Source: an uncultured Thermodesulfobacteriota bacterium (lineage in GTDB: Bacteria > Desulfobacterota > GWC2-55-46 > JADFVP01). From it: a stretch of DNA of 64,000 nt. The notes beneath the pieces are model-generated. The model saw only the letters and a program-made list of their open reading frames with translations, was not told where the DNA came from and did no database searches. Below, piece by piece: positions 329-56,261 of this stretch. The first letter of the stretch is position 1. Each line of letters begins with the position of its first letter. The position numbers and the translations under genes were made by a program. The stretch is from assembly GCA_964510775.1 (NCBI GenBank), contig CAZEBZ010000002.1:8447-72446 (forward strand), read 5' to 3'.

Positions 329-672
329 GGACTGACCCCCTCCCCCCAAGAAGGGCTCTTTCATAGATATCTCTTTCTTCAACTCTTCCTCCAGATAATA
401 AACTTCCCGACACCTTTCTTATGCCGGATATTGACAGAACAACTCATAAAAACTATATAGAAACTAACAAGATAACCCGCCCGGCGATATACAGGAGGTC
501 AAGATATAAGATCTCTCCCGTTACGGGTCTCAGCAGGGCACTTGGATATTATCTAATATATATCAGCAGGATAAAGAGCGCAACCTATTTTTTTTGCTTC
601 TGCCTGTAATTTTTAAAGAGAGAGAATATGGGTAAAATCAATGTCCATGACACCTATACACACCATGCCGGT

Positions 673-2451
673 CTAACCCTCCCCCGCTGCTGCCCCGCCT
701 CTCCCCCTTATCATGGCCTTTTTAACCCCAAAGGCCAGAGAGGTCTTTGATACCTCCCTTATCCTGAAACCCGGCCTCGCACCTCCGCCCCAGGTATCCT
801 TATAGGGAGAAAAAGCCAGCGAGAGACCTGTGCCGTCAAGGCCTCTCATCTCTGCCATGCCAAATCCTATGGCCCGTGCCCTTGCGCCGTCCTCACTAAG
901 CCTGAAGCTAAGGTGTCTGCCGCCGACTACTTTTGTACCCACAACAGTAGCGCCCTGAAGACAGAGCAGGGGCTCTCTGTTGGCCATTCCAAAGGGAGCG
1001 AGACTCTCTATCTCCATAATAGCCCGAAGGCTCATGTCTCTTAATGAGACAGCGGCGTCAAGCTCTACCTCGGCGACAAGGTCCTCTTCAGTAAGAGTCT
1101 CGCGGGCAAAGGCCAAAAAGCCCTCAGTAAATGCCTCTACCATCTCTCTACTTACTGAAAAACCCGCTGCGGCCCTATGGCCGCCGAATCTAATCAGTGA
1201 CGCGGCGTTGCTCTTAATGCCCTCAAGTATATTAAATGCCTTGATCCCACGGGCGGAACCGCGGCCAATATCACCATCAAGGGCTATCATCACTACAGGA
1301 AGGCCAAAGCGCTCAGTAAGCCTTGAGGCAACTATGCCTATGACGCCCTGATGCCAGTTATCAGAGGCAAGCACCATGGCGCGGCGCGGCCCCGTCTCTA
1401 CCTTCATAAGGGACTCGGCCATAATAAGGGCCTCGTCCATAATATCACTCTCCATGTTTCTGCGCGAGGTATTGGCATCGTCAAGAGCCGCCGCCATAAC
1501 AGCGGCCTCTTTTGCGTCATCAGTTACAAGCAAAGAGAGGGCCATATCAGCCCTTGCGATGCGTCCCGCGGCATTAATGCGGGGGGCGAGCTTAAAGCCG
1601 ATATGATAAGACTCTACAGGGCCAGGGGGTATTGCGGAGACCTCTTTCAGTGCTATGAGCCCCGGCCGCTCTGTATCGGTAAGCTCAACAAGGCCGTAGC
1701 GGACAAATATCCTGTTCTCGCCTACGAGGGGTACCATATCCGAGACAGTACCTATGGCGACAAGGTCAAGAAAACGCTTGAGGTTTGGCCCCTTACCCGT
1801 TATCAGACCGCTCTCGCGCAGCCTTGACCGCAGGGCCATGATAAGGTTAAAGGCGACTCCTACGCCTGCGAGAGACTTAAATGGAAAGGCGCAGCCCTCT
1901 TGGCGGGGGTTTATAAAGGCGCGTGCAGGAAGCTTTTGTTCCGTGGGCTCATGATGGTCTGTTACTAAGACATCTATACCAAGAGCAGCGGCGGCGGATA
2001 TTTCATTATGGTTGGAGGTGCCGCAATCAACTGTAATTACAACCTTGACGCCTTTTTCACCAAGGGCCTTCAAGCCCTTAATATTAAGGCCGTAACCCTC
2101 GCCCTGCCGCTCCGGTATGTATGTATAGATTTTATGCCCTATGGACTTGAAAAAGAGGTATACAAGGGCCGCCGAGCTTGTGCCGTCAACGTCATAATCG
2201 CCCCATACGGCTATGGCCTCGCCTTTTTGCAAGGCCTCTTGGATACGCCCTACGGCCTTATCCATGTCTTTCAAGAGAAAAGGGTCGTGGAGGTCCTCAA
2301 GACCTGGACGCAAAAAAGAAGAGGCCTTCTCGCTGTCAGCAAGACCTCTATTAATGAGTATGCGAGCCGTAAGGGGCAGGATATTAAGGTCTCTTACCAG
2401 TTTATCCTGAAGGGACTTATCAAGTGGAGTTACCTTCCAGCGTTTTTTCAT
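673..2451 (-). CDS. recJ: Single-stranded-DNA-specific exonuclease RecJ
   Basis: 592 aa with DHH-family motifs (VVITVDCGTSN...DVLVTDHH), a DHHA1-like GGGHxxAAG segment, and a typical RecJ N-terminus. Confidence 0.9.
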   Translation of the reverse strand: MKKRWKVTPLDKSLQDKLVRDLNILPLTARILINRGLADSEKASSFLRPGLEDLHDPFLLKDMDKAVGRIQEALQKGEAIAVWGDYDVDGTSSAALVYLFFKSIGHKIYTYIPERQGEGYGLNIKGLKALGEKGVKVVITVDCGTSNHNEISAAAALGIDVLVTDHHEPTEQKLPARAFINPRQEGCAFPFKSLAGVGVAFNLIMALRSRLRESGLITGKGPNLKRFLDLVAIGTVSDMVPLVGENRIFVRYGLVELTDTERPGLIALKEVSAIPPGPVESYHIGFKLAPRINAAGRIARADMALSLLVTDDAKEAAVMAAALDDANTSRRNMESDIMDEALIMAESLMKVETGPRRAMVLASDNWHQGVIGIVASRLTERFGLPVVMIALDGDIGRGSARGIKAFNILEGIKSNAASLIRFGGHRAAAGFSVSREMVEAFTEGFLAFARETLTEEDLVAEVELDAAVSLRDMSLRAIMEIESLAPFGMANREPLLCLQGATVVGTKVVGGRHLSFRLSEDGARARAIGFGMAEMRGLDGTGLSLAFSPYKDTWGGGARPGFRIREVSKTSLAFGVKKAMIRGRGGAAAGEG

Positions 2452-2635
2452 ATAACCTGATAGTCCCCCTGCAATAAAGAGAATATTTTAAGATAATAGC
2501 AGCGTTAGCCGGAAAAGAAATTAAGGGGCAACTTTAAAATACATATTAAAATATCTTATATAGAAAGACCTTTTCGGTCAAGTGATGATTAGAGGTAATA
2601 AGCAAGAATATATAAGAGGGATAATAGAAAGCAGC

Positions 2636-2646
2636 GGGGGGGGGGG
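2636..2646. repeat. Homopolymeric G tract (G11, then A, then GGG) in the recJ upstream region
   Basis: gcagc GGGGGGGGGGG a ggg gtaag, 185-200 bp upstream of the recJ start and 55 bp downstream of the HD-GYP stop. Confidence 0.7.
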
Positions 2647-2699
2647 AGGGGTAAGAAGAAAAACTCATCAGGGAGAGGCAAACTGTGAGCAATGAGACA

Positions 2700-3929
2700 T
2701 TATAACTTCGCGGCAAATCCGCCTATCAGCTCTCTAACCTCTGCCACATCAAGACGCTCGGCAAGAAGGGGCACAATAATGGGGCGCTCGGCCTCACCAT
2801 TAACCTCCTCAAGTATTACGTTCACAAAGGCAACAACTGCCGCCGGGTCGAACTGTGTGCCCGTATGCTTCTTAATCTCAGAGATTGCGGCATTAAAGCT
2901 GAGACGCGGCCTGTATGGCCTGTCAGTGGTCATGGCGTCAAAGGCATCCATGAGGGCCATCACCTTCGCACCAGCCGGTATCTCGCCGTGTGCAAGCCTG
3001 TCGGGGTAGCCCGTACCGTCGATCTTTTCGTGATGGTTGCGTGTCATCATGGCGATACCCTTCCAGGGGAAATGTATCTTCGAGAGTATCTCATACCCCA
3101 CTACGGGGTGAGAGTTAAGCTCTCGCACTTCCATGCTTGTCAGCGGGCTGGCCTTGTTGATTATAGTCTTGTCTACGGTAATCTTACCAATGTCATGGAG
3201 CAGGCCGGCGACTTTTATACCCTCTACCCGGGTCTTTGTCCAGCCCATCTTCTCTGCCACCACTGCGCTGTAGGCAGAGACCCTGTGAGAGTGCCCCTTT
3301 GTATATGCGTCCTTTGCGTCAATAGCCGTGGCAAAGGCATGGATAGTGTCGCGGTAAACCATGGAGAGATTATCATAAAGGCCCTTGTTCTCATTATACT
3401 TGTGCATAAGGCGTGTAAAGAGGGCGTTTGTATGGAGGCTGTAGGAGATATGCTGCGCCATAACAGAGAAGAGCTGTCTGTCGTAAAGTGTATAATCCTG
3501 CCCCGAGACCTTCTCGCTTATGGCTATAACGCCGAAGAGTTCTCCCTTTATCACAAGGGGAGAGGCTACTCTAACATTAAAACGGAGAAGCTCTTCTCTG
3601 AGGGTACCAAAGACAGCACCGCTGGCCTCATCATTCAGGTCAAAGGCCTGAAGGTTCACGCAAAGGGCCTTTATCGTATCCCTGCCGAGTATAAGGGTCT
3701 TGCCGCCAAGACCAGGTATGCCCTTTGCCGCTACAGAGGCAAAACACTTTTTTTCCCTGTCATAAGAGAGAATAACCCCCCTGGACGTAGAGAATGAGCC
3801 CATGACCATCATAAGGGAAGACCTCATAATCTTCACAAAATCCTTGGGTGAAGCTATCTCTTCGCCGAGCTCGGCAAGGGTATTAAGATGAAAGACAAGT
3901 TTTTCAAGACTTACATCAGGCACTACCAT
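2700..3929 (-). CDS. GAF domain + HD-GYP c-di-GMP phosphodiesterase
   Basis: 409 aa. The C-terminal half carries an HD motif (HSHRVSAYS...LLHDIGK) and HHEKIDGTGYP (HD-GYP signature). The N-terminal half is GAF-like. Confidence 0.85.
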   Translation of the reverse strand: MVVPDVSLEKLVFHLNTLAELGEEIASPKDFVKIMRSSLMMVMGSFSTSRGVILSYDREKKCFASVAAKGIPGLGGKTLILGRDTIKALCVNLQAFDLNDEASGAVFGTLREELLRFNVRVASPLVIKGELFGVIAISEKVSGQDYTLYDRQLFSVMAQHISYSLHTNALFTRLMHKYNENKGLYDNLSMVYRDTIHAFATAIDAKDAYTKGHSHRVSAYSAVVAEKMGWTKTRVEGIKVAGLLHDIGKITVDKTIINKASPLTSMEVRELNSHPVVGYEILSKIHFPWKGIAMMTRNHHEKIDGTGYPDRLAHGEIPAGAKVMALMDAFDAMTTDRPYRPRLSFNAAISEIKKHTGTQFDPAAVVAFVNVILEEVNGEAERPIIVPLLAERLDVAEVRELIGGFAAKL

Positions 3930-3982
3930 GACTACTCCTGTAATTCTTAACTCTCAATCAACTTTTTCAGAGGAAGATAAGA

Positions 3983-4372
3983 TTAAACAGCCGCTACGGG
4001 AACCTTTACACCGCAGGCCTTAAGGGCGTCATCTTCAGTATCATATATGGGCACGCTATCAGTAAGTCTCACAATCTTTAGAACATCATAGACAACACCG
4101 CGTACCCCTGACAAGAGAACTTTGGAGCCAACACCCTGTACCTTCTCTATAATACTTGTAAGTATAGAGATACCAATGGAATTTATAATATCCGTACTGG
4201 AAAAATCAAGGATAATGGCACAGCCTCTCTCCTTAAGAAAGGACTCGCATATCTCCTCAAGTTTCTCACCCTCGAGGTCGTTAATATAATCCCTTGCGTA
4301 GACTACAATAACGTCGCCGTAATCAGTGAAGGTTTTAACTTCTTTATCCATCACCGTCCTCTCCTTTTTCAT
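3983..4372 (-). CDS. STAS-domain anti-sigma-factor antagonist (SpoIIAA/RsbV-like)
   Basis: 129 aa. ILDFSSTDIINSIGISIL carries the conserved phosphorylatable Ser context of anti-anti-sigma factors. The gene overlaps the upstream kinase gene by 29 nt. Confidence 0.8.
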   Translation of the reverse strand: MKKERTVMDKEVKTFTDYGDVIVVYARDYINDLEGEKLEEICESFLKERGCAIILDFSSTDIINSIGISILTSIIEKVQGVGSKVLLSGVRGVVYDVLKIVRLTDSVPIYDTEDDALKACGVKVPVAAV

Positions 4373-6533
4373 TGAGATATTTTACAAGCACAAGGCGCGT
4401 TCCTCCATCAAGGCTCTCAAAGCGCACCTCATCCATAAGTCCTTTCATAAGAGCGAGCCCCCAGCCCCGTTTCTGAGGCAGAGCCTCGGCGCCGCCTGCG
4501 GCCGGAGTGGCCGAGAGGGCTCCGTCAAAATCATATCCGGGGTTGGATACATATATAGTAAGGGCCTCAGGAGAGGTGACAAACCTCAGATGCACCTTCG
4601 AGGGAGGCGAACCGCTGTGCTCAAAGGCGTTTATGCAGGCCTCCACCACGCTCGTCTTTATCCGCCCGATAGAGTCCTCGTCAAAACCCATCTCAGCGCT
4701 GATTTCAGTAGCCGCGCGCACGCCAACGAGCTCGGCATTACGGCTCGGAGGAAGCACCATCTCAAACTCCCTTACAGCGGGCTCAGGGCCGCTGGCACGG
4801 CCGCTCTGCACGGGGCACACGAGCTTTTTAATCGCAGCGAGGGCAACGGCGTCTGATGTGAAAGCAGGGCCGTCTTTTGCAAGCCTCTCAAGGGCTTCGC
4901 TGCTAAAGCCTTTTTTTCCAACGAGCCATCTTATTACCCGCGCAGGGCAGAACTCTCGCTGCAGAATACGGCTCCGCCGAAGAAAATTCTCTACATCACC
5001 TGTATTTACAAGGGTATCAGAGTCCTTAAGGCCAACGAGCCAGAGTACCTCGCCGCTGGCATCAAACCTGCCCGGAGCAAAACCATGGGCGATTACAATA
5101 GGCAGTCCGCTCTCGTATTTTTCAAATGCGCTCGCTGCAAAACACCCCGTGACGCTTGGAAGCCTCAGACGCGTCTCATCATCTGCATCCTCGGCGGCCT
5201 TATCACATGCGCCAATACGAAAGAGGGTCTGTGGCGCATCTTGACCTTCAAAAGCCCTCAAGACACTCATTATCTCATCTCTAAACCTTCCCTTTACGGC
5301 GCTGCCCTGTGCAGAGTAACCCGTCTTAAGGACATCCCTTATCATCCACGTCCTTGTCTCTTCGGCGCTCTTTCCAAGCAGAGCCGTAGAACACATGTAC
5401 TCAATATAGTCACCGGCTACAGGGTCAGTGGTACCGCGGATAGAGCCAAGATTAAGTGTAAGGAGGTTAAGAGAGGAGAGAAGCAACACTGTCTTCTCCA
5501 TATCGACGGCGCTTATGCCAAGCCTCTCCGAGAGGTCATCAAGACCTATGGGCCCCCGCTGCATCATAAGGGCACGTAGAGCCCGAAGGCCGCTTCGCCC
5601 GCATTGCGAGAACTCGCCGCCAAAGGCCGCGCCAAGAGTTCCCGTAGTAATCTCATTGACATAGAGGGCGGCAAAGCCTTTTATACTCTTAAGGGCCTCT
5701 ACGGGGCCGCATGACATGGCCCGCACAATCTCTCTAATATAAAATGGGTTTCCGCCGAGCCTTCGCGCCGCCATTGAGACTACCTCTGACTCAAAGCCAA
5801 GGCTGTAACCTCGCAGCAGCTCTTCTATCATAGCCCGGGCGTCGTAGCCAGGCAGACCCTTTACCTCTATGGTCTCGGAGTAGACCTCACCGGCGAGCCC
5901 ATTGCTCATAGCGCCTTCGCCCGAGGCAGCGGCAAAGGCCAGGGGCTTCAGTGCCGCACTTAACTCTCCCGCTACAGAGCCCCCCCTTTCGTAGAGGTTT
6001 ATAGACTCGGCAGAGTCTATATCGTCAAGGAGCAAAAAGGCGGCGGTGCCTGTCTCGCGAGATATAACCTCAACAATGCGAAGAGCGTTCCTAAGGAGCG
6101 CCGTCGGTTCATCTCCCCCTCGCAGGTCAAGGTGCGCGGTAATAAGGTCCGCAGTCTCGATAAAGCCCTCATCGGCAAGGAGGCTCCTGATTTTTTCAAG
6201 TCTCAACTGGCCCCGCGACACTTCGGGGTCACGCCTCTTAAAGGCACGAAACTGCTTTATAACGGCGGCGATAAAGCCGCCGCAAAACTCCTCAAGGCTC
6301 AATGAGGCACTTAATTGATAATATACGGGTACAACAAGACCCTGCTCCCAGAAGAGCTTCCTGTGCGTCCTTCTAAGTATCTCTGTCTTGCCTATCCACC
6401 TCGCCCCCTTAAGGATAATCGCGCAGGGCGGATGAGAGAGATCTACGGCTGCGCCGTAGATCTTATCCATAAGGGTCTCTCTACCAAAGAACTGCCCCTC
6501 GGGAAGTACTGAAAAAATGCTCTTATTTCTCAT
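4344..6533 (-). CDS. Fusion protein: N-terminal P-loop NTPase (AAA-like) + C-terminal RsbW/SpoIIAB-like HATPase_c serine kinase
   Basis: 729 aa. Walker A is GARWIGKT and Walker B is FLLLDDID near the N-terminus. The C-terminus has an N-box (EACINAFEH) and a G2-box (KRGWGLALMKGLMDEV) typical of anti-sigma serine kinases. Confidence 0.6.
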   Translation of the reverse strand: MRNKSIFSVLPEGQFFGRETLMDKIYGAAVDLSHPPCAIILKGARWIGKTEILRRTHRKLFWEQGLVVPVYYQLSASLSLEEFCGGFIAAVIKQFRAFKRRDPEVSRGQLRLEKIRSLLADEGFIETADLITAHLDLRGGDEPTALLRNALRIVEVISRETGTAAFLLLDDIDSAESINLYERGGSVAGELSAALKPLAFAAASGEGAMSNGLAGEVYSETIEVKGLPGYDARAMIEELLRGYSLGFESEVVSMAARRLGGNPFYIREIVRAMSCGPVEALKSIKGFAALYVNEITTGTLGAAFGGEFSQCGRSGLRALRALMMQRGPIGLDDLSERLGISAVDMEKTVLLLSSLNLLTLNLGSIRGTTDPVAGDYIEYMCSTALLGKSAEETRTWMIRDVLKTGYSAQGSAVKGRFRDEIMSVLRAFEGQDAPQTLFRIGACDKAAEDADDETRLRLPSVTGCFAASAFEKYESGLPIVIAHGFAPGRFDASGEVLWLVGLKDSDTLVNTGDVENFLRRSRILQREFCPARVIRWLVGKKGFSSEALERLAKDGPAFTSDAVALAAIKKLVCPVQSGRASGPEPAVREFEMVLPPSRNAELVGVRAATEISAEMGFDEDSIGRIKTSVVEACINAFEHSGSPPSKVHLRFVTSPEALTIYVSNPGYDFDGALSATPAAGGAEALPQKRGWGLALMKGLMDEVRFESLDGGTRLVLVKYLNEKGEDGDG

Positions 6534-8163
6534 ATAAAACTACCCTGTTCTTGCCTCTGCGTTTCGCCTGATACATGGCAGCATCGGCTCGGTAGATAAG
6601 GTCGTCAGTATTACGAGCGTCTCCTGGAAACTCGGCGATACCTATGGATATAGTAGGTGACGGACAAGACATCTCTTGGGGAAACTCCAGAAGCTCCACA
6701 TCAGACCTGATCCTCTCGGCAATGACCTCAGAATCAAGCTTCGAGGTATGGGAGAGTATGACGGCAAACTCCTCACCGCCGTAGCGCACAACAACGTCCA
6801 CTGTCCTTACGGCGTCTTTTATGGCCAGGGAAATACGTTTAAGCACATAATCGCCTGCAAGGTGGCCCCAGTTGTCGTTAAAGGCCTTAAAATCGTCAAC
6901 ATCTATTATGAAGACGGTAAAGCTGTCTCGCTGCCGCCTTACACGCTCGGCCTCCTCAAAGAGCCTGTTCTTGAAGAACCTTCTGTTAAAGAGTCCCGTA
7001 AGAGGGTCTGTCATGGAGACTGTCTTGAGCTTCTCGCTCATACTGTAGTAGGCCCCCCTCTCAAGGGCTATTGTGGCGTAGTTTGAGATGGAGAGAAGGA
7101 CAAAGAGGTCTTGAGATGTAAAGAGACCCTCTCCGCTCTTATCGGCAAGGTTTATAACCCCTATGACACGGTCATAGAGTTTCAATGGAGCGGAGATAAA
7201 AGAAGGCGTCTTGTAAGCCCGTTGGCTTTTTCTCCAAGGCAGCTCCTTATCGATATCCTCAATCACCATGGGCTCGCCCTTTTGCGCAGTGCGCCCCGTT
7301 ATACCCTGCCCCATTTTTATGCGCACACTTGTGGCGATGCTCTTTTCCAGCCCCCTTGATGACTTTATACGAAAGGCCTTGCTGGCGTTATCAAATATCA
7401 TCAATGAAGCGCGCTCAGCACCTATAAGCTCACTGGATTTGGAGAGTATTATCTCGTAGAGTGAGTCCTTATCTATTACCGTAGAGATACTCTTGTATAT
7501 ATCAAGAAGACCCTTGAACTCCCCGTTGTAAGAGAAACCTGCCGCAGAGGGAGTCTCATCACTTCGCGGTAGAGACGTATTGTGAAGGGATTCGAGAAAA
7601 GGCACGGCCAATCTCTTAAAGGTATCGGGAAGGCTGAAAAGTGAGTCTGTCGCGAGACTCTTTACACGCCCCTTAAGGCGCTGCCGCGTCTCTCTGTCAA
7701 GGCCGTTGAGACCCTTGACAAAGGCCTCGTCTTCACGGCCCCTCATATAGGTTCTGCCTCCCATAAGCACATAAGAGCGGCCCTTTAAGAAGACGGGCAT
7801 GGCAAAGGCGAACATATTGCCGTGACACTTGAATATATGGGTATTACCGTCATGAAGAGCCCGCAGAGCGGCCTTGTTGTAATCAGAGCTGCAAAGAGCG
7901 CGAAGCTCCTCCTTGGAGCTCATCTGATGAGCCACCTCGTCATTAAAGCTCGGAGGCACGATAAAGGCCCCCTTCTCATCATTAAGGGATACTGAGACGC
8001 CAAGAAGCCTTGAGAGACCGTCCTGAAATTCGCTCCACCTCGAGGCATTAAAACCCTCAAGATGCACAGGCGACCCGTCCTTGCTGCTGCCAGCCTCGTT
8101 TCCTATATTGGAGACTCTTTCCATATTCAAAAAAACCTCAATACCATAACAGTATTGAGGCAT
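6523..8163 (-). CDS. GAF domain + GGDEF diguanylate cyclase
   Basis: 546 aa. The active-site motif is RYGGEEFAV, with a DxLTGLxNRR I-site/linker region. The central domain is GAF. The gene overlaps the downstream ATPase-kinase gene by 11 nt. Confidence 0.85.
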   Translation of the reverse strand: MPQYCYGIEVFLNMERVSNIGNEAGSSKDGSPVHLEGFNASRWSEFQDGLSRLLGVSVSLNDEKGAFIVPPSFNDEVAHQMSSKEELRALCSSDYNKAALRALHDGNTHIFKCHGNMFAFAMPVFLKGRSYVLMGGRTYMRGREDEAFVKGLNGLDRETRQRLKGRVKSLATDSLFSLPDTFKRLAVPFLESLHNTSLPRSDETPSAAGFSYNGEFKGLLDIYKSISTVIDKDSLYEIILSKSSELIGAERASLMIFDNASKAFRIKSSRGLEKSIATSVRIKMGQGITGRTAQKGEPMVIEDIDKELPWRKSQRAYKTPSFISAPLKLYDRVIGVINLADKSGEGLFTSQDLFVLLSISNYATIALERGAYYSMSEKLKTVSMTDPLTGLFNRRFFKNRLFEEAERVRRQRDSFTVFIIDVDDFKAFNDNWGHLAGDYVLKRISLAIKDAVRTVDVVVRYGGEEFAVILSHTSKLDSEVIAERIRSDVELLEFPQEMSCPSPTISIGIAEFPGDARNTDDLIYRADAAMYQAKRRGKNRVVLYEK

Positions 8164-8514
8164 CCTTTACCCCGGCCAAGAGACCCTTCATGAGCCCCTT
8201 GATTCACAGATGCGTAACAAAAAGCCAACCCCTTCCTGCCAGGAACTACAATCATTTTTCACGAAGATTTTACCATAGAAATTGGTTTTTTACAATAAGT
8301 TTATTCTGCCTCTGGTTCGCCGCCGCGTTAAGCCTGCTTCTCAGATAGCGGTATGGATATGATTATGAGAGATAAGAACCGAGGGGAGAGCGAAGGGACA
8401 AAACACACCTCAGAAAGGCAGGCCGCATACCCGCCAAGGGATAAAGATATAACCGCCCCTAAACATATAAGAGAGCTTAAGGGCGAGATTAGAAGAAGAG
8501 CGTTACGGCAGGAA

Positions 8515-9441
8515 TCAGGTCTTTTCCAGGGCCTCGGTGCCTGCCTGCCCCTTAGCTGGACGCTCCTTCCATAAAAGAAGCACAGGGCTTGCTATGAACA
8601 TTGATGAATAGGTTCCAACCATTACGCCGAGAAAGAGGGCGAGGGCAAAGTCATGAATAACCTCGCCGCCAAAGAGAATCAGGGCCGCAAGGACTATAAG
8701 CGTAGTAAGAGAGGTAACAACGGTTCTGCTTAAGACCTCATTGATACTCCTGTTCACAAGGGAATAAAAGTCTTCATGCTTCTTTTTGTGAAGGTTCTCA
8801 CGTATTCGGTCAAAGACAACAACACTGTCAGAGAGAGAATATCCGGCGAGGGTGAGCAGCGCCGTCACAATAAGGAGGTTCATCTCCTTGTGCATGATAA
8901 AGAGCAGACCAAGCACTACGAGGACATCGTGGAATGTGGCGATAACAGCGGCCACGCCGAAACGGAACTCAAACCTCCATGCAACATAAAAGAGTATTCC
9001 AAGCAGGGCTATGCCAATGGCCTTAATTGCATCTGTTTGAAGTTTCTGACCAACTGTTGGCCCAACCTCTGAGGTGGAGTCAATAGTAAAGGGATTCTCG
9101 GCCATATCGGCGCGAAAGACGTCTGCTATGGCCCTTGATGTAGCCGCGAGATCTCCATCAGAGGATTTAAGGCGTACAAGTAATTGAGTGGGGTCTGAGA
9201 GCTCCTGCAGGTTGGCGTCCTCAAAACCTCCCCCCGAGAGCAGCCCTCTCACCTTCTCAAGGGCAACGGGGCCCTCGAACCTGAACTGAATAGAGACACC
9301 TCCGGAAAAATCTATACCCAGCCTCGCCATGCCCGTTGGGATAGCTATGGCCGCCACAATCCCCACAAGGGCAAAGATAGCCGATACAACGAAGGTAACC
9401 TTTCTAACACCGAGAAAATCTATCTTTGTATTTCCAAGCAT
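8515..9441 (-). CDS. secF: Protein translocase subunit SecF
   Basis: 308 aa polytopic membrane protein with SecF family conservation, located immediately downstream of secD. Confidence 0.9.
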   Translation of the reverse strand: MLGNTKIDFLGVRKVTFVVSAIFALVGIVAAIAIPTGMARLGIDFSGGVSIQFRFEGPVALEKVRGLLSGGGFEDANLQELSDPTQLLVRLKSSDGDLAATSRAIADVFRADMAENPFTIDSTSEVGPTVGQKLQTDAIKAIGIALLGILFYVAWRFEFRFGVAAVIATFHDVLVVLGLLFIMHKEMNLLIVTALLTLAGYSLSDSVVVFDRIRENLHKKKHEDFYSLVNRSINEVLSRTVVTSLTTLIVLAALILFGGEVIHDFALALFLGVMVGTYSSMFIASPVLLLWKERPAKGQAGTEALEKT

Positions 9442-41413: not shown

Positions 41414-42304
41414 TTAGCGCCCTTTAATCTTTTTCACGGCAGGCGTCTTCTTTACGTCCTGAGTATCTTTAATCTTTTTCACCTTCTTCTCAATGGCCTC
41501 GGCGCGCTTCTTATAATCAGCGGCCTCGGTATTGGCGGGGTCAACGGCAAGCACCTTCTTCCACTCTCTTATGGCAAGGGCAAGCTCCTCTTTCTGAAAA
41601 AGAGTTACGCCCTCTTTGATATGACGGTCTATAAAATTCTTGCGCTCAAGACGGGCGAGATTTAAAAAAAGCTCGGCGTCTTTATAATCAGGCACAATCT
41701 TAAGCGCCTCTGTAAAGTGCTTTATGGCTTTATTATATTTACCTGAGATAAAATAAAGCTTACCCTTTACGTAGTGATGTCCCGCTTTTTTCTCAGGGCC
41801 AACATCTCTCTTTTTGGCCTTACGTATCTTCTTTCTTATCTCTTCAAGCCCGGGCAATGGCTGGCCGGGATTCTCACTGCTTAAAATTTTGTTAAGAAGG
41901 GTATGCTTTTTTCTCGCCCACTTATTTGATGGATTAATACGAAGGGCAGTATCATACTCTTTAAGGGCTTTGTGCAGTATACCCGCCTTCTCATAGGCCT
42001 CGGCAAGCTCCACATGCTCTGTTGAGAGTTTAAGGGCAAGTCTGTTAATATCCTTCAGGAGTTTTTGAGCTCGGCTGTACGCAGGGTCTGTCTCTACTAT
42101 GTCACCGGCCTTGTCCCTTGCCTGAGATATAGCACCGCGCTCATAGAGTATCTCTGCCTGCCTGTAATCAGTACCAAGGACATAATCAGTCCCTGTCCCC
42201 GCGCAGCCGGAGAAGAGGACAGAGGCCAAGACCACGAGGCTAAGGTAAAAACCCCTCCTCGCCCATGGTTCTGATAGTCCTCTCAACAACTTGCTCAATC
42301 TCAA
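41414..42304 (-). CDS. TPR-repeat lipoprotein
   Basis: 296 aa. A lipobox-like signal (VLFSGC) is followed by multiple 34-residue TPR repeats (AEAYEKAGILHKALKEYDTALRINP and others). The annotated start overlaps the upstream cyclase gene by 65 nt, so the true start may be an internal non-ATG codon. Confidence 0.7.
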   Translation of the reverse strand: MRLSKLLRGLSEPWARRGFYLSLVVLASVLFSGCAGTGTDYVLGTDYRQAEILYERGAISQARDKAGDIVETDPAYSRAQKLLKDINRLALKLSTEHVELAEAYEKAGILHKALKEYDTALRINPSNKWARKKHTLLNKILSSENPGQPLPGLEEIRKKIRKAKKRDVGPEKKAGHHYVKGKLYFISGKYNKAIKHFTEALKIVPDYKDAELFLNLARLERKNFIDRHIKEGVTLFQKEELALAIREWKKVLAVDPANTEAADYKKRAEAIEKKVKKIKDTQDVKKTPAVKKIKGR

Positions 42305-43664
42305 CCCTCCTATTATCCTTCAACTCAACTATACTATAAAGCCCGATTGGCTTGTCAACACCTTTTATTGCCGCAGGCGCTACCTTCTGACAATGGGCGT
42401 ATTTCTTCACCCGCGCATAAAGCCCCTCGTTTATAAGTATCTCACCTCCGCCTGCTATATCAGATAACCGCGAGGCCATGTTCACTGCCTCGCCGACTGC
42501 CGTATACTCCATCCTCTGTCTCGAACCCATGTTGCCTACAATCACAGGGCCGGAATCAAGGCCAAGGCCCATACGCACAGCGGGCTCACCGCGCTCCTGC
42601 CTCAGGGCATTTACGCGCCTTAGGACATCCCTTATGGCAACAGTCGTCTTGACCGCCTCCTCCAGATGAGAAGGATTGGCAATAGGAGCGCCAAATACGC
42701 ACATTACGGCATCGCCGATAAACTTATCCACCGTGCCGCCGCAGGTAAAGACTACCTCCGTAATAAGGCTGAAGTATTTATTCAATATCTCAACTGTCTG
42801 CTCCGGACTCATGCTCCGGGCATGACGGGTAAAGCCGCGTATATCAGCGAAAAAAACAGTAAGATCGCGTCGTTCGCCGCCAAGATCAAGGCTCTCGGGC
42901 TCTCTTAATATCTCATCGGCCACATCAGGGCTGACATAGAGATTAAAGACCCCTCTCATAACCTCCTTTTTCTTCAGCTCCGCGGCCATATGGTTAAATG
43001 AGCGCACAAGCTCGCCCACCTCGTCTCTTCTCCCTTCAGGTATCTTATAATCAAAATTTCCCATAACTATCTCCTTCGTACCTTTGAGGAGCATGAATAT
43101 GGGCCTTAAAAATCCTGAGGCAAGGGGTATAGAGATAAAAGAGACGAAGATTATAGCCAGCATGGTGATAATAACGAGGCTCATTACCGCGGCCCTTACC
43201 CTCTCGACGATAAAGGCCTTTGAGAAAGAGAGTACCGTGTAGCCAACCTTGGTATCCTTAAAAAAAACAGGCATGGCGTAGGTAATGGAGCCCTCTCCCT
43301 CAGATATCACCCATGGATAGGCGCCGCGCGCCGCATTGATACGGTTTGCGAGAAAAAATCTCTCGCCCACGCTCCGCATATCCCTAACGGCCTTGACCAT
43401 GAGGCTCTCGTTCAGTATGTATGCCTTTGAGATTGATGGATTTTTAAGAATATTCTCAATGAGCTGGCTCATTGCGAGGCTGTCGTTCTCAAGGAGGGGG
43501 AACTTACTGTTACGGGAAAAACTGCCTGTAATAGTTCCGGCCATGGACTTTATCTGCGATTCCATGGAGTGTTTCTGATTCAGCACCATGAAGACGCCCA
43601 TGACAGTGGTAATGGCGCAAAACAGGATGGAGAGGATTATGGCGTACTTTAACTTTATGCCCAT
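42240..43664 (-). CDS. Membrane-bound class III adenylate/guanylate cyclase with periplasmic sensor and HAMP domain
   Basis: 474 aa with two TM segments flanking a roughly 140-aa periplasmic domain, a HAMP domain (VGELVRSFNHMAAEL), and a CHD cyclase domain (FADIRGFTRHA...GDAVMCVFG). Confidence 0.8.
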   Translation of the reverse strand: MGIKLKYAIILSILFCAITTVMGVFMVLNQKHSMESQIKSMAGTITGSFSRNSKFPLLENDSLAMSQLIENILKNPSISKAYILNESLMVKAVRDMRSVGERFFLANRINAARGAYPWVISEGEGSITYAMPVFFKDTKVGYTVLSFSKAFIVERVRAAVMSLVIITMLAIIFVSFISIPLASGFLRPIFMLLKGTKEIVMGNFDYKIPEGRRDEVGELVRSFNHMAAELKKKEVMRGVFNLYVSPDVADEILREPESLDLGGERRDLTVFFADIRGFTRHARSMSPEQTVEILNKYFSLITEVVFTCGGTVDKFIGDAVMCVFGAPIANPSHLEEAVKTTVAIRDVLRRVNALRQERGEPAVRMGLGLDSGPVIVGNMGSRQRMEYTAVGEAVNMASRLSDIAGGGEILINEGLYARVKKYAHCQKVAPAAIKGVDKPIGLYSIVELKDNRRVEIEQVVERTIRTMGEEGFLP

Positions 43665-46013: not shown

Positions 46014-48623
46014 TCACTTCCCGCCACGGGTAAGGACTTCTTTTACAAAGGTTATCTCCTCGTCTTTACTGCATATCTCTCCATCAAGACGCTTTAGGAG
46101 CAGGGCGGAAATAGTACGCCCTATCTGCGGCCCCTCGGGCACTCCAAGGCCCAGAAGCTCGGAGCCTGTAAGGGCCGGGGCAGTACCCCTTAAGCGGGTA
46201 ATATAAGTAGAGAGGCTCTTCTTAACAGCCTCATCTTCTGTACGGGCCATCATGTATAATAACCCCTCAATGGGCAATAAAGAGAGTAAGGTGTACAGCT
46301 CACTATTGGAAAAGGGAATTTCTCTGCCAAGAGACTTTAAGGCTCTCCGATAGACCCGCCTTCGCGAGATTATATCCACTGTTTTCTTGTCTACTATGGA
46401 GAGCCTTGTTCTAATACCCCTCATCATAACCTCGCTCAGCCCGTCTGTAAGGACAAGAAAGAGAACCACCCACTCTGCGAGCTGCTCACCTGTGTACAAG
46501 AGTTTAAACCAGCCCAGCGCCTCTCTTGCCCTCTCAAAAAAGGCCTCATCTCTCGCGTTAAAGGTAATTCCGCTGTGTATAAGGGGAAGAAGACCGAGCC
46601 GGCCGAGGGCCTTTATTGCCTTTAATGCCGTCTCCTCATCAAGAATGCTTCGCAGCTCCTCAAGGAGACGAGGCCCCGAGAGATGGCTGAAGACCCCGAG
46701 CCTTACGGCCTTCTTAATAAGTTTTTTCGTATGGGGCTCGATAGTAAAACCGAACTTGACGGCAAACCTCACGGCCCTGAAGGCGCGCGTAGGGTCCTCG
46801 ATAAAACTCAGGTTATGGAGTACGCGTATCTTCTTTTCTTTTATATCACGGCGGCCCCCGAAAAAATCTATAAGGCTCCCAAAGGAGTCGGGGTTTAGCT
46901 CCACGGCGAGGGTATTGATTATAAAGTCACGCCTGTATATATCAAGTTTCAGTGAGGACTGCTCTACTGTTGGCAGCGCCCCGGGGCTCTCATAATACTC
47001 AAGACGCGCCGTGGCAACATCTACTTTAAATCCGTCAGGAAATATTAAGACCGCTGTCTTGAACCTCTTATGCGAGCGCACTCTGAGGTTGTTTTCTTTA
47101 GCGTAAGAGCGAGCAAAGGTTATGGCGTCGCCATGCTCGATAACTATATCCACGTCGAGATTATCTCTGCCAAGGAGAAGGTCGCGGACAAAACCGCCTA
47201 CTACATAAGCGCGGCAATTAAGGGCCTCGGCAATGCCGCCAAGAGATGCCAGCCTCTCCATAAGCCACTGCGGAAGCCTCTCTCTCATAAGGTTAGCCAC
47301 TACCTTGACCCTCGGCCCCGTCCCATACTCGCTGCCAATATCCCTCTGCAGGAGCCGCAGTATATCCGTCCTCGTAATAACCCCCCTGACACTGTGCCCC
47401 TGTAGCACAGGTATGAGCCGCTGCCCGTGTCTTACGAACATCTCCCTTATCTCCCCAAGAGAGGTATCCGGCCCTACGCACTCCACATCAGTACTCATGA
47501 AGTCGGCGATTTCCTCATCGCCGAGGCCGTGATATACTGCCTTGTCAATAGTCTGGCGCGTTATCACACCAGTGAAGAGACCGCCCTCAACTACGGGGAT
47601 AGCGTTAATATTATACCTGCCGAGTATTGCCGAGGCCTGCCGTAAAGGTGTATCTGACTCAACAGTAATAGGGGGAAAACTCATAATATCCGCTGCACTC
47701 TCCGTTGGCGGCACAGCTCGCTTCAACGCGCCGAGAAGAGTTGCTCTTGCCTCTGTAAGGGTAAGGCCCTTTAACGTAACAGAGGCGGCATGGGCATGAC
47801 CTCCGCCGCCAAGAAGCTTTAATACATGACCCACGTTTACACCTCTGGCCTTACTTCTCGCAACAACATGAACCCTCTCGCCGGAATCCACAAGCATAAA
47901 GAGAGACTCCATGCCCTCTATATCTCGAATCTTGTGGGCGAGTATGGAGATGTCTCCGCCGTGTTCTGTAAAGGTACCCTCGGCAATCACGATCTCGCGG
48001 CCGCCAAAGGTCACGGTAGTCTCGTTCTTAAGGAGCTCGTTTAAAAAAGATACCTCCTCAGGCGTTAACTCCCTGGTGAGCATATCAGATAAGGCCGAGA
48101 GGTCTGCTCCGGCCTCAAGAAGATAGGCCGCCGCATTAAGGTCATTCACTGTAGTAGAGGGGTAAGTAAGGGAACCCGTATCCTCATAGATGCCTGCCAT
48201 CATTACCGTAGCCTCGGCGGCACTCACCTTCAACCCCTTATCTCGCAATATCTCAGTAATCACCGTAGTAGTAGAGCCGTACTCCTTTACTACCTCAAGA
48301 GTACCAGAGAGGTCTCCCTCTGAGGCGGGGTGATGGTCATAGATATGAACCTCAAGGCCCTCTTTGCCTATTATATCGGCAAAGGCCCCAAGCCTTGCGG
48401 GGCTGCGCACATCAACGAGTATGAGGCGGGTAACAAGGGCAAGATCTATGTCTTTAACCCTGTAAAATGTCTCTTGAAGACCAGCGGTGGAGAGGGCCTC
48501 CTTGAGAGTCTTCTCAAGGGAGCCGGGAAAGACGAGCTTTGCCTGCGGATAGAGCTTATGGGCGCCTATCATAGAGCCCAGAGTATCAAAGTCCGCGTTT
48601 ATATGGGCGGATATAACTTCCAT
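46014..48623 (-). CDS. Multidomain CCA tRNA nucleotidyltransferase: DHH-DHHA1 phosphoesterase + tandem CBS + poly(A) polymerase/CCA head + HD domain
   Basis: 869 aa. The N-terminus carries NrnA-like DHH motifs (HINADFDTLGS, HIYDHHPA) and a DHHA1 segment (GGGGHAHAAS). The middle has CBS pairs. The C-terminal half carries GGFVRDLLLGRDNLDVDIVIE, the class II nucleotidyltransferase signature, followed by a helical tRNA-binding region. Confidence 0.8.
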   Translation of the reverse strand: MEVISAHINADFDTLGSMIGAHKLYPQAKLVFPGSLEKTLKEALSTAGLQETFYRVKDIDLALVTRLILVDVRSPARLGAFADIIGKEGLEVHIYDHHPASEGDLSGTLEVVKEYGSTTTVITEILRDKGLKVSAAEATVMMAGIYEDTGSLTYPSTTVNDLNAAAYLLEAGADLSALSDMLTRELTPEEVSFLNELLKNETTVTFGGREIVIAEGTFTEHGGDISILAHKIRDIEGMESLFMLVDSGERVHVVARSKARGVNVGHVLKLLGGGGHAHAASVTLKGLTLTEARATLLGALKRAVPPTESAADIMSFPPITVESDTPLRQASAILGRYNINAIPVVEGGLFTGVITRQTIDKAVYHGLGDEEIADFMSTDVECVGPDTSLGEIREMFVRHGQRLIPVLQGHSVRGVITRTDILRLLQRDIGSEYGTGPRVKVVANLMRERLPQWLMERLASLGGIAEALNCRAYVVGGFVRDLLLGRDNLDVDIVIEHGDAITFARSYAKENNLRVRSHKRFKTAVLIFPDGFKVDVATARLEYYESPGALPTVEQSSLKLDIYRRDFIINTLAVELNPDSFGSLIDFFGGRRDIKEKKIRVLHNLSFIEDPTRAFRAVRFAVKFGFTIEPHTKKLIKKAVRLGVFSHLSGPRLLEELRSILDEETALKAIKALGRLGLLPLIHSGITFNARDEAFFERAREALGWFKLLYTGEQLAEWVVLFLVLTDGLSEVMMRGIRTRLSIVDKKTVDIISRRRVYRRALKSLGREIPFSNSELYTLLSLLPIEGLLYMMARTEDEAVKKSLSTYITRLRGTAPALTGSELLGLGVPEGPQIGRTISALLLKRLDGEICSKDEEITFVKEVLTRGGK

Positions 48624-48709: not shown

Positions 48710-49654
48710 CTAAAAGAGTGTCTTTCTCTTTTTCTTTTTCTTTTTCTGCTTTTTCTTCTTCTCTTCCTCTTCTTTAGCTTTTTTATCGGCCTCGGCCTTG
48801 GCCGCGGCCTTCTCTTTCACAACATCAGCGCCTGTAATCCAGTCCGGTATGGCACGCTCTACGGAGTGACAGCGAAAACAATTTTCAAGAGGAAAGGCCA
48901 CCTTGCCGTGACAAGCGCCGCAGTACTCTCCGTCTATAATCTTCATCATATCCATAGCAGCATTACCGCCCTCTTTCGCCTTAAAGCGCCCCGGGTGACA
49001 GGCCGCGCAGTCAAGTACCTCGGTATGAGACTTATGTGGGAAGAGGACATCAGGCGGGACTGCGGAGAATTTACTGCGGGCATAGGCAGGAAGCACTACG
49101 TCCTTTTTAAGCGCCTTCAGCTGTCCCTTACCGTCAAGAGAGGATTTTGGAGTAATCTTATTCTCATGGAGGGCCTTGACCCAGTCAACCTTGTTGCCAA
49201 AATCACTAGCGGGAAAGCCCCTAAGGGCCTCCTTAATACCGCTATTCTCCACGACCTTCTTACCATAGGAATGGCAGCGATTGCATGTCTTCGTACTAAA
49301 AGCCTCTCTTCCGTTATGACAGGCGCCGCATTTTCCCCCGCTCTCAATATCGCTATGCCTTATATCCGTAAAGCCTGCCTTCCAGGCAAATCCAAGATCC
49401 TTGTGACAGACATTACATGTATAAAACCTCCTGTGCGCCCAGTGTTTAAAGACAACAGGGGCCACACCATCGGCGGCCTTAATATTCTTCTTCATCACAA
49501 CAGAGCCGTACCAGGAAGGCGGTAATACTTTATTGTAACCATCCCCTGTTACGGTGCGGGGCCCTGCCGCTGAGGAAGAGATAAATTGCGGCGCCGCTAT
49601 GACAAATAGAGCAAGAAGAACTATCTCTATGATATGCGTACAAAAACGTTTCAA
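48710..49654 (-). CDS. Hexaheme c-type cytochrome built from c7/c3-like modules, with a poly-lysine C-terminal tail
   Basis: 314 aa with a signal peptide and six CxxCH motifs (CNVCH, CGACH, CNRCH, CAACH, CGACH, CFRCH). The distal His contexts are c3/c7-like (VVFKHWAHRRF, VLFPHKSHTEVL). The C-terminus is KAKEEEEKKKKQKKKKKKRK. Confidence 0.8.
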   Translation of the reverse strand: MKRFCTHIIEIVLLALFVIAAPQFISSSAAGPRTVTGDGYNKVLPPSWYGSVVMKKNIKAADGVAPVVFKHWAHRRFYTCNVCHKDLGFAWKAGFTDIRHSDIESGGKCGACHNGREAFSTKTCNRCHSYGKKVVENSGIKEALRGFPASDFGNKVDWVKALHENKITPKSSLDGKGQLKALKKDVVLPAYARSKFSAVPPDVLFPHKSHTEVLDCAACHPGRFKAKEGGNAAMDMMKIIDGEYCGACHGKVAFPLENCFRCHSVERAIPDWITGADVVKEKAAAKAEADKKAKEEEEKKKKQKKKKKKRKTLF

Positions 49655-49682
49655 TATAAAAAGACCTCCCTGACAAGAATTT

Positions 49683-50072
49683 TTAATAGCCCCTGTGACA
49701 GGCCGAGCACAGACGCAGATAATCTATCCTCAGCATATTTGGGTACTCTGACTTATTATGAGCATCATGGCATGTGTAGCACACAAGCTTACCACTCTTA
49801 TCAAGGGGCATACGCCTGCTTATGTTTATCCTCGGTCTCTTACCTATGGGGTGTTTTGCCACAGGGTGATTGCCGAGCTGCTCCTTATGGCAACGCGTGC
49901 AGAGAGTAACTGTATCTAACTTTAAGGAAGGCATCTCGCTGCCATGACAGTAAGAGCAACTCTCTTTATTCTCCCACTCATGGGGATTGACGCCGTGACC
50001 CGCCGCCAAAGAGACACGCGGCAGGGTAAGCAACGAGAGGAATAAAAAGACTGCAAGAGCGAGACCCGCCAT
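49683..50072 (-). CDS. Small tetraheme c-type cytochrome
   Basis: Four CxxCH motifs (CSYCH, CTRCH, CYTCH, CSACH) in about 130 aa. The start is placed at the internal Met preceding the signal peptide MAGLALAVFLFL; the ORF track starts at 50135. Confidence 0.75.
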   Translation of the reverse strand: MAGLALAVFLFLSLLTLPRVSLAAGHGVNPHEWENKESCSYCHGSEMPSLKLDTVTLCTRCHKEQLGNHPVAKHPIGKRPRINISRRMPLDKSGKLVCYTCHDAHNKSEYPNMLRIDYLRLCSACHRGY

Positions 50073-50214
50073 TATCCACCGCAAATGAGTGCGAGTACTA
50101 CCTCTATTTATCAAGACAGGCGCATAAATGCCCATGACCGTGCCTCCACCCTATCTTTCCATCACAGCGGGCCTTGCTCCGGTGATAATCAAAAAAACTC
50201 ACAGAGAGCCCACT

Positions 50215-52401: not shown

Positions 52402-52559
52402 GAAAAACCTCCCCGCAGATTACATGCCGCTCACCACAAATAATCGCTTTTTCGATTATCTGCCATACAAATAAATAACCGGCTCTTTACTACAAAACCC
52501 CACTCAACAGACTTGGCGCTGCTCTTGGCCAAAGACTCCGGTAATCATCTCTTTGAGAC

Positions 52560-53696: not shown

Positions 53697-53717
53697 AACT
53701 TCACCAGAGCCCCGCGC

Positions 53718-54356: not shown

Positions 54357-54437
54357 CCTTTAGGGCGTCCGGCCAGATGCCGGAGAGCCGTACAGAGTTT
54401 ATTCCTTACACAACAAAGATTAAACAACCATTAGAAG

Positions 54438-55589: not shown

Positions 55590-55598
55590 ATACTATAA

Positions 55599-56207: not shown

Positions 56208-56261
56208 CTTACACCTCATAAAGTTAACATAAAATCAATTAAAATTCAACTACGTGCCCGC

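Follow-up and report, generated by a model that had tools for sequence, protein, structure and literature searches.

To our knowledge, partner-switch control of c-di-GMP synthesis is confined to a few proteobacterial systems, each of which pairs a STAS-type protein with a cyclase. In HsbA-HsbD, BgrV-BgrR and SiaC-SiaD, diguanylate cyclases are controlled by STAS or STAS-like proteins (PMC8457831), and an earlier note on this DNA, which had pointed to a STAS protein acting on a GGDEF cyclase in the Pseudomonas HptB-HsbR-HsbA-HsbD pathway, is supported by the literature in this respect. SiaABCD of Pseudomonas aeruginosa comprises the PP2C SiaA, the kinase SiaB, the STAS-like DUF1987 protein SiaC and the cyclase SiaD. 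In the HptB-HsbR-HsbA-HsbD pathway of the same organism, the STAS protein HsbA is phosphorylated by an RsbW-type domain and controls a GGDEF cyclase (PMC8457831, PMC8256260), and in Sinorhizobium meliloti, the STAS protein BgrV of the partner switch BgrSTUWV-BgrR modulates the cyclase BgrR (PMC8457831).

The locus described here, four co-directional genes (A to D) within a 64-kb stretch of DNA, hereafter the window (Table 1), resembles these systems in that a STAS gene and a kinase gene are genetically linked to a GGDEF cyclase gene, as in SiaABCD, HsbR/A/D and BgrSTUWV-BgrR. Compared with SiaABCD, however, the cassette encodes a true Pfam STAS protein, contains no PP2C, carries its RsbW-type kinase domain fused to a 580-aa NTPase/winged-helix/alpha/beta module, and has an HD-GYP phosphodiesterase as its obligatory fourth gene. 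The Hsb system differs from the cassette in several respects: a phosphorelay feeds HsbR, a response regulator that carries a PP2C domain as well as a kinase domain; the action of HsbA extends to anti-sigma factors (FlgM and the RpoS pathway); and there is neither a co-encoded phosphodiesterase nor an NTPase fusion. The Bgr switch is described as a set of five proteins (BgrS, T, U, W and V) and not as a kinase-STAS pair, and no HD-GYP partner or NTPase-fused kinase is named for it in PMC8457831. Unlike the classical RsbW/RsbV and SpoIIAB/SpoIIAA switches, the cassette has no sigma factor or PP2C, the G1 aspartate of its kinase domain is replaced by asparagine, and this domain makes up just the last fifth of a multidomain protein of 729 aa.

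What sets the cassette apart is that a synthase and a hydrolase are both coupled to a single partner-switching pair, that a STAND-NTPase fusion takes the place of the usual small kinase, and that a dedicated phosphatase is lacking. On balance, we favor, with moderate confidence, the reading that the cassette is a conserved operon in which a c-di-GMP synthase and a c-di-GMP hydrolase are placed under one sigma-independent partner-switching pair. This uncharacterised operon probably represents a novel kind of c-di-GMP switch, and, as a compact four-gene system, it makes reciprocal STAS control of a second-messenger writer and eraser directly testable.

Table 1. Features of the cassette and its leader, in window coordinates
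Feature	Coordinates	Strand	Motifs and remarks
Operon 5' leader: promoter-like site, upstream hairpin, terminator-like hairpin and T-run	8125..8295	-	
Gene A, PocR-GAF-GGDEF diguanylate cyclase	6523..8124	-	Longest ORF to 8163; Pfam PocR, GAF, GGDEF
Gene B, P-loop NTPase, helical/winged-helix, alpha/beta and RsbW-like GHKL, 729 aa	4344..6533	-	
B residues 1-280, STAND/Arch_ATPase-like P-loop NTPase	5694..6533	-	Walker A GARWIGKT; Walker B LLLDD
B residues 284-572, helical/winged-helix, long helix and alpha/beta domain	4818..5684	-	Alpha/beta domain of restriction-endonuclease-like topology
B residues 588-729, RsbW/SpoIIAB-like HATPase_c_2	4344..4772	-	N-box E631-x3-N635-A-x-E-H639; G2 R689-G-x-G692; G1 position Asn664
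Gene C, single-domain STAS, anti-sigma-antagonist type	3983..4372	-	Pfam STAS; likely start Met8 at 4351
Gene D, GAF-HD-GYP phosphodiesterase	2700..3929	-	Pfam HD_5; PDB matches

Packing and domain composition of the cassette

The longest ORFs of A (6523..8163), B, C and D encode 546, 729, 129 and 409 aa, respectively; A and B overlap by 11 nt, B and C overlap by 29 nt, and C and D are separated by 53 nt, exactly as had been noted before. The operon-like packing proposed at that time is borne out by these junction distances, and the four genes are predicted to be co-transcribed. For the STAS protein, both the JGI gene call and homologue alignment place the probable start at Met8, which gives 122 aa and shrinks the B/C overlap to 8 nt. 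All four of the original domain calls were upheld by Pfam profile searches (GGDEF, HD_5, STAS and HATPase_c_2), AAA_16 matching the N-terminus of B only below threshold.

Gene A had been read as GAF-GGDEF, and both domains are indeed present, but an N-terminal PocR domain had been overlooked (PocR 9.5e-13, GAF_2 3.5e-15, GGDEF 6e-48). The RxxD I-site (RTVD) and GGEEF are present as RTVDVVVRYGGEEF, together with the base-contact motif NDNWGHLAGD, in which we place the equivalents of PleD N335 and D344 by counting from the GGEEF of PleD. Across the family, the cyclases retain GG(D/E)EF (AGDEF in one clade), RxxD and the N...D base contacts. A Hypr-type (cGAMP-making) GGDEF domain, suggested by the Phe, Thr, Ser or Ala nine positions past the 'NRR' Asn, was rejected because the guanine contacts sit in 'ND..GH..GD', which is canonical in all members.

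At the other end of the cassette, gene D matches HD_5 (2.7e-35) and, under the cut-off, GAF_3 (7e-6), and GAF families match its homologues. It contains HDIGK, HHEKIDGTGYP and DRPYR, the last of which conforms to Rxx[K/R], the guanine-recognition motif of HD-GYP phosphodiesterases (bioRxiv 10.1101/600031). This motif is found in 54 of the 54 family HD-GYP sequences that reach it, and the HD and HHE..GYP motifs are also kept. The best sequence match of D in the PDB is V-cGAP3 (5z7c, 6.7e-33), a cGAMP phosphodiesterase, and PmGH (4mcw) is matched at 9.5e-29.

In the case of gene B, the fusion of a P-loop ATPase with an RsbW-like domain had been recognized, but the winged-helix and middle alpha/beta regions had not. 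With Walker A and B motifs and an NTPase, helical and winged-helix succession, the N-terminal part has the STAND/Arch_ATPase core. Compared with the archaeal Walker-type ATPases PABY2304 and SSO1545 (Arch_ATPase type) and the STAND NTPases NB-ARC, CED-4 and MalT, B lacks a TPR, WD40 or LRR sensor arm and has a serine-kinase-like output domain attached. The Walker A lysine is gone from most acidobacterial members, so NTP hydrolysis by the N-terminal domain is not universally required. In the alpha/beta domain within residues 284-572, the ExK lysine is absent, and judging from this feature of the sequence, the domain is probably non-catalytic. AF2 modelling of the middle domain alone gave a low pLDDT of 47. 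The C-terminal domain matches HATPase_c_2 at 2.7e-18, and the architecture of B is identical in 138 of the 166 relatives retrieved.

Gene C, the small partner of B, matches Pfam STAS at 4e-12. Its candidate phospho-serine is Ser65 (ORF numbering; codon 4178-4180) in the motif INSIGIS. This serine aligns with those of two structurally solved antagonists, TM1442 (in D-S-x-G) and RsfB (in G-S-V-G), and with S58 of SpoIIAA. An NS[IV]G motif occurs in every STAS protein detected at related loci.

Conservation of the four genes and their surroundings

Related loci, about 80 in all, were sought with a profile built from a 49-sequence subset, the 124-sequence profile being too divergent for this use. 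Counting only non-redundant loci where the contig permits the test, a GGDEF gene lies upstream of B on the same strand in every case (54 of 54), a STAS gene follows B in 69 of 72 (it is absent after B in L043, L050 and L056), and an HD-GYP gene lies downstream in 47 of 48. The A-B-C-D order persists at B identities as low as 24%, with estimated junction gaps whose medians are about 14 nt for A-B, the shortest, about 85 nt for B-C and about 51 nt for C-D. Surroundings, on the other hand, change from clade to clade: secDF and recJ in the clade of the window; a sigma54 response regulator, DUF7847 and DUF4129 at L006; UPF0182 at L009; and an Opp transporter, as well as FHA, protein kinase and PP2C genes, at soil loci. 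The four-gene arrangement is far beyond chance, and the functional link among the genes that the earlier note had assumed gains support from strict conservation of the cassette amid unrelated flanks, as well as from annotated relatives in two phyla, namely in Thermodesulfobacteriota and in Pyrinomonadaceae/Acidobacteriota.

The cassette family is common. Word-index searches with B or with the 124-sequence profile gave just 18 proteins, a serious underestimate, as an exhaustive profile search and a search with an acidobacterial member gave many more. A single acidobacterial query retrieved 933 protein clusters (90% identity) at E <= 1e-30, which, where named, are called only 'ATP-binding protein' or 'RsbW', and the N-terminal profile of B matched 1302 representatives. 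Acidobacteriota are a major phylum of soils, and their signalling has been little studied.

A classical switch also includes a sigma factor and a PP2C. In the ORFs of the 64-kb window, Pfam searches detected no sigma factor, and neither Pfam nor phmmer with two PP2C queries detected a PP2C, so the lack of both, noticed at first in the immediate locus, holds across the whole window. Among the gene calls and recurrent neighbours of annotated related loci, there is likewise no sigma factor, and no locus has a PP2C inside the cassette. A convergent operon of PP2C, protein kinase and FHA genes does adjoin the cassette in one acidobacterial subclade, in 11 of the 29 loci that extend 3 kb or more downstream, and such a neighbouring PP2C operon does not occur in the clade of the window. 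Every partner switch known to us requires a phosphatase, and the description of the locus as self-contained is therefore doubtful. Without a phosphatase in the cassette, phosphorylated STAS would have to be reset by an unlinked phosphatase or by protein turnover, or else the switch would work by binding only.

A possible mechanism and its alternatives

In the mechanism that we favor, the mobile element would be the small STAS protein. The C-terminal RsbW-like domain of B would capture it and probably phosphorylate the invariant Ser65, while the STAND-like NTPase, the winged-helix and the middle alpha/beta regions may form a signal-gated input, responding to a nucleotide or to oligomerisation, that would decide whether STAS is held or released. 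By analogy with SiaC-SiaD, HsbA-HsbD and BgrV-BgrR, the released STAS protein would bind the cyclase and/or the phosphodiesterase as its putative target, thereby shifting the balance between synthesis and breakdown. The sensors of the enzymes themselves, a GAF domain in both and PocR in the cyclase, could add further input, and the RxxD site of the cyclase could confer product inhibition. Making both enzymes from a single operon would be sensible only if the two were regulated in opposite directions.

How far B deserves the name of a serine kinase depends on its nucleotide-binding boxes. The N-box and G2 box of the RsbW-like domain are conserved across the family. However, the G1 aspartate, which contacts adenine in RsbW and SpoIIAB, corresponds to Asn664 in B, and of the 114 family members in which this position is occupied, 71 have Asn, 27 Ser and 3 Asp (Asn/Ser about 86%), a replacement that makes ATP-dependent kinase activity uncertain. 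The earlier call of a serine kinase needs qualifying on this account. An alternative with a modest chance of being right is a phosphorylation-independent switch. Here the RsbW-like domain would be a pseudokinase, or a kinase of very low activity, and its role would be confined to binding STAS (or one of the enzymes) and letting it go again as the NTPase module dictates. Such a switch would need no phosphatase, in keeping with the absence of PP2C from every cassette, and VanS, in which Asp is likewise replaced by Asn, is a weak binder of ATP (preprint 10.1101/2022.12.12.520123). Against it, the candidate phospho-acceptor serine is present in every STAS protein found, and the Glu, Asn and His of the N-box and the RGxG of G2 are strongly conserved at 20-25% overall identity, a pattern that speaks for nucleotide binding and catalysis. 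Asn can still hydrogen-bond adenine, as in ThkA (cited in 10.1101/2022.12.12.520123).

The same replacement permits a bolder version of the favored partner switch, in which the RsbW-like domain uses a guanine nucleotide, either GTP as phosphodonor or a ligand. The switch would then read the nucleotide pool that the cyclase consumes, making the cassette a feedback device for c-di-GMP, either homeostat or toggle, that is self-contained, needs no phosphatase and is gated by a STAND-type NTPase. The proposal is based on Asn and Ser being hydrogen-bond donors suited to guanine O6, with precedent in a GTP-dependent kinase of B. anthracis that has the same Asp-to-Asn change as the G1 box of B; we regard it as speculative and rather unlikely.

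It is also conceivable, though we think it doubtful, that B is itself the direct regulator, its RsbW-like domain sequestering the cyclase or the phosphodiesterase and STAS serving as the antagonist that frees the enzyme. This arrangement would mirror the classical RsbW/RsbV topology (review PMC8256260) and would suit the close spacing of A and B, which overlap in the window and have the shortest gap across loci, but in the three c-di-GMP precedents it is the STAS-type protein that touches the cyclase (PMC8457831). An ordinary anti-sigma switch, with the sigma factor and the phosphatase encoded elsewhere and the c-di-GMP enzymes as inputs or co-regulated neighbours rather than outputs, appears improbable, because sigma factors are missing from the window and from the annotated neighbours of related loci, exactly four genes are kept while the flanks change, and the other non-sigma partner switches in PMC8457831 act directly on cyclases. 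Chance adjacency is effectively refuted by a four-gene order kept at nearly all of the loci, and an anti-phage defence island, for which the STAND-like NTPase fold of B might speak, is scarcely credible given that PADLOC matched none of A, B and C and linked D just weakly to Cas3 HD domains, and that the cassette of the window clade sits in conserved housekeeping surroundings.

The 5' leader and the start of gene A

The operon is preceded by a leader that had escaped the earlier note and is conserved only in L001, L002, L004 and L007. It contains a promoter-like site, TTGTAA-17-TAAAAT with an upstream TG (8295..8267, minus strand), and a terminator-like hairpin with a T-run (8161..8135, minus strand) that ends just 5' of the start codon of A. 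Rfam has no family matching the leader or anything elsewhere within 2300-8700, and small leader peptides upstream of A were rejected, as neither frame nor length is conserved. The first 13 codons of the longest ORF of A coincide with a conserved hairpin and are non-coding, the frame being broken in L001, so the true start of A would be at about 8124 (ATG) or at 8130 (TTG); the JGI gene call uses the TTG at 8130, giving a protein of 535 aa.

Gene models and domain content of the cassette

The four genes of the cassette, namely A (PocR-GAF-GGDEF cyclase), B (a 729-aa P-loop NTPase and RsbW-like fusion), C (STAS) and D (GAF-HD-GYP phosphodiesterase), lie on the minus strand at the coordinates given by the earlier note, and the longest ORFs reproduce its junctions, with overlaps of 11 nt between A and B and 29 nt between B and C, and a gap of 53 nt between C and D. 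Its GGDEF, RsbW-like, STAS and HD-GYP calls were matched by Pfam and NCBIfam profiles. By Pfam, A carries PocR (9.5e-13), GAF_2 (3.5e-15) and GGDEF (6e-48), C carries STAS (4e-12), and D carries HD_5 (2.7e-35) with a sub-threshold GAF. In B, the RsbW-like portion scored above the cut-off (HATPase_c_2, 2.7e-18) and the P-loop ATPase portion reached 3e-4 with AAA_16, below it. The top NCBIfam matches were anti-sigma-B factor RsbW models for B and the anti-sigma factor antagonist superfamily for C.

Codons 1-13 of ORF A coincide with a conserved hairpin and T-run, the length of which differs between relatives by a non-multiple of three (39 nt here, compared with 41 nt in the related metagenome locus L001); the most likely start of A is therefore either ATG 8124 or TTG 8130. 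In the JGI gene call for an identical contig, A, STAS and D comprise 535, 122 and 407 aa, respectively, and the STAS start at Met8 reduces the B/C overlap to 8 nt. A promoter-like TTGTCA-18-TATGAT is present inside the STAS gene (4085-4114, minus strand), ~150 nt before the HD-GYP gene begins; known only as a consensus match (10 of 12), it may serve the phosphodiesterase as an internal promoter.

Coordinates of the cassette ORFs and leader elements
Feature	Position	Strand	Remark
A	6523..8163	minus	longest ORF
B	4344..6533	minus	longest ORF
C	3983..4372	minus	longest ORF
D	2700..3929	minus	longest ORF
Leader, window	8125-8295	minus	
Leader, L001	about 445-597		
Leader, L002	about 8262-8420		
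Leader, L004	about 6256-6405		
Leader, L007	about 6245-6405		
Promoter-like site	8295..8267	minus	TTGTAA-17-TAAAAT and upstream TG, conserved
Terminator-like hairpin	8161..8135	minus	GCCUCAAUAC...GUAUUGAGG and U-run

Conservation of the cassette

The linkage of the four genes is conserved, and the motifs of the two enzymes and of STAS are intact. Close relatives of B were found in metagenome-assembled genomes of Thermodesulfobacteriota, and every sufficiently long contig of this set carries A-B-C-D in the same order. An exhaustive profile search with B residues 1-580 returned 1302 representatives at E <= 1e-3, 249 of them at E <= 1e-30, and the RsbW-like C-terminus is also present in 138 of 166 fetched relatives. 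From a metagenome scan yielding >584 relatives, 80 loci were kept, in almost all of which domain-level phmmer placed PocR-GAF-GGDEF, B, STAS and GAF-HD-GYP on the same strand. Among non-redundant loci, with each gene scored where the contig permits, A is upstream of B in 54/54, STAS is downstream of B in 69/72 (the exceptions being L043, L050 and L056), and HD-GYP lies downstream in 47/48. Median gaps are estimated at ~14 nt for A-B, ~85 nt for B-C and ~51 nt for C-D; in L045, an insertion of 2 kb carries methyltransferase and glycosyltransferase genes.

Two distant members (~30% identity) keep the cassette amid unrelated flanks: L006, where a sigma54 response regulator precedes it and DUF7847 and DUF4129 genes follow, and L009, with UPF0182 downstream. 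A homologue search with P0045, a member of a divergent clade, gave 933 clusters at E <= 1e-30, with relatives annotated as Pyrinomonadaceae or Acidobacteriota and named, where at all, only 'ATP-binding protein' or 'RsbW'. Recurring across divergent relatives and differing surroundings, the cassette is thus an old, mobile functional unit and no local accident.

A proposed partner switch with c-di-GMP enzymes as outputs

The cyclase has an RxxD inhibitory site and GGEEF, replaced by AGDEF in one clade, and all members keep an 'ND..GH..GD' motif, with the equivalents of the PleD guanine contacts N335 and D344. HD[IV]GK and HHE..G.GYP are kept in the phosphodiesterase across loci, as is, in all 54 sequences extending that far, the Rxx(K/R) guanine-recognition motif, a mark of specificity for c-di-GMP rather than cGAMP (Wright et al., bioRxiv 10.1101/600031). 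Every STAS found among the loci has an 'NS[IV]G' serine aligning to its counterpart in TM1442 and RsfB, two antagonists of solved structure.

The earlier note had also held that neither a sigma factor nor a PP2C phosphatase is encoded here, and this was borne out over the 64-kb window, where Pfam scans of ORFs found neither; phmmer searches using two PP2C queries, as well as the domains of the module itself, gave no PP2C and no second copy of any of these domains. Of the readings considered, a sigma-independent partner switch with the two co-encoded c-di-GMP enzymes as its outputs has the best support. The RsbW-like domain of B would hold STAS and probably phosphorylate it, with the large N-terminal module of B as a gated input, and the cyclase and/or phosphodiesterase would be bound by free STAS or, with lower probability, by B itself. 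We infer these binding partners, phosphotransfer, co-transcription and bistability, and the earlier proposal that STAS toggles between the two enzymes is compatible with the data. Precedents for partner-switch STAS-type control of cyclases are HsbA-HsbD, BgrV-BgrR and SiaC-SiaD (PMC8457831), and a review of STAS-only proteins covers how they work in general and which further outputs, other than sigma factors, they have (PMC8256260). As in the known systems, c-di-GMP enzymes would be under partner-switch control; the cassette differs in joining writer and eraser in one operon, in its STAND-type fusion kinase, in its non-canonical G1 box and in having no phosphatase; full-text literature searches yielded no description of this cassette or of the NTPase-RsbW fusion.

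Two features depart from a textbook partner switch. The first is Asn664 of B (codon 4542-4544), which in the alignment stands where RsbW and SpoIIAB have their G1-box aspartate. Of the 114 family members that have a residue in this column, 71 carry Asn, 27 Ser and 3 Asp, and the N-box and G2 box stay conserved. According to a VanS structure preprint (10.1101/2022.12.12.520123), the amine of adenine is the usual partner of this aspartate, and its change to Asn is rare; VanS, which carries the change, binds ATP weakly, and a sporulation kinase of Bacillus anthracis that shares it depends on GTP. By analogy, the RsbW-like domain may be a kinase that works weakly with ATP, a kinase that uses GTP, or a pseudokinase limited to binding. 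Within the window clade, the Walker A GKT and Walker B DD of B do not vary; of 124 family members in the alignment, 55 have lost the Walker A lysine. In a large lysine-less subfamily, GAS, GTS, GVS or GLS replaces GK[ST] and Walker B Asp170 is kept; relatives also include ~550-aa forms without the middle domain and ~590-aa forms without the kinase-like domain.

The second misfit is the missing phosphatase, none being a cassette member among the loci examined. In one acidobacterial subclade only (11 of the 29 loci with >=3 kb downstream), the cassette adjoins a convergent operon that encodes a PP2C, a Hanks-type Ser/Thr kinase and an FHA protein; the window clade has no such operon. It could supply the phosphatase in that subclade or reflect mere synteny. 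In L030, L040, L053, L065, L073, L081 and L084 it lies on the opposite strand downstream of the HD-GYP gene; in the subclade, 50-650 nt separate that gene from the FHA gene end.

Leader and surroundings in the window

Upstream of the cyclase gene, the window clade only has a promoter-like site, a structured leader of ~140 nt (MFE z-score -3.3) with an upstream hairpin, and a terminator-like hairpin finishing 5-11 nt ahead of the start codon. Conserved across five genomes, the leader occurs once in the window and matched no Rfam family; covariation support from these five sequences is thin, and the leader is a candidate attenuator or riboswitch. A GAGG within the 3' arm of the terminator-like hairpin could be a sequestered ribosome-binding site.

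The cassette is flanked by housekeeping genes on its own strand (Pfam), with queA, tgt, yajC, secD and secF upstream and recJ downstream. A 248-nt spacer separates the HD-GYP gene from recJ and contains a run of 11 C (2636-2646, minus-strand reading), preceded by CCCCT. Other window ORFs include a dcw cell-division cluster and multihaem cytochromes. Two further nucleotide-related genes, at 42240-43664 and 46014-48623, encode a HAMP and class III adenylate/guanylate cyclase protein and an 869-aa fusion of DHH/DHHA1, CBS and a poly(A) polymerase/CCA-adding head. The multihaem c-type cytochromes, the products of which include one of 728 aa, are encoded in a cluster at 48710-57077, interleaved with NHL-repeat and BamB-like beta-propeller proteins; the cluster resembles an extracellular electron-transfer locus.
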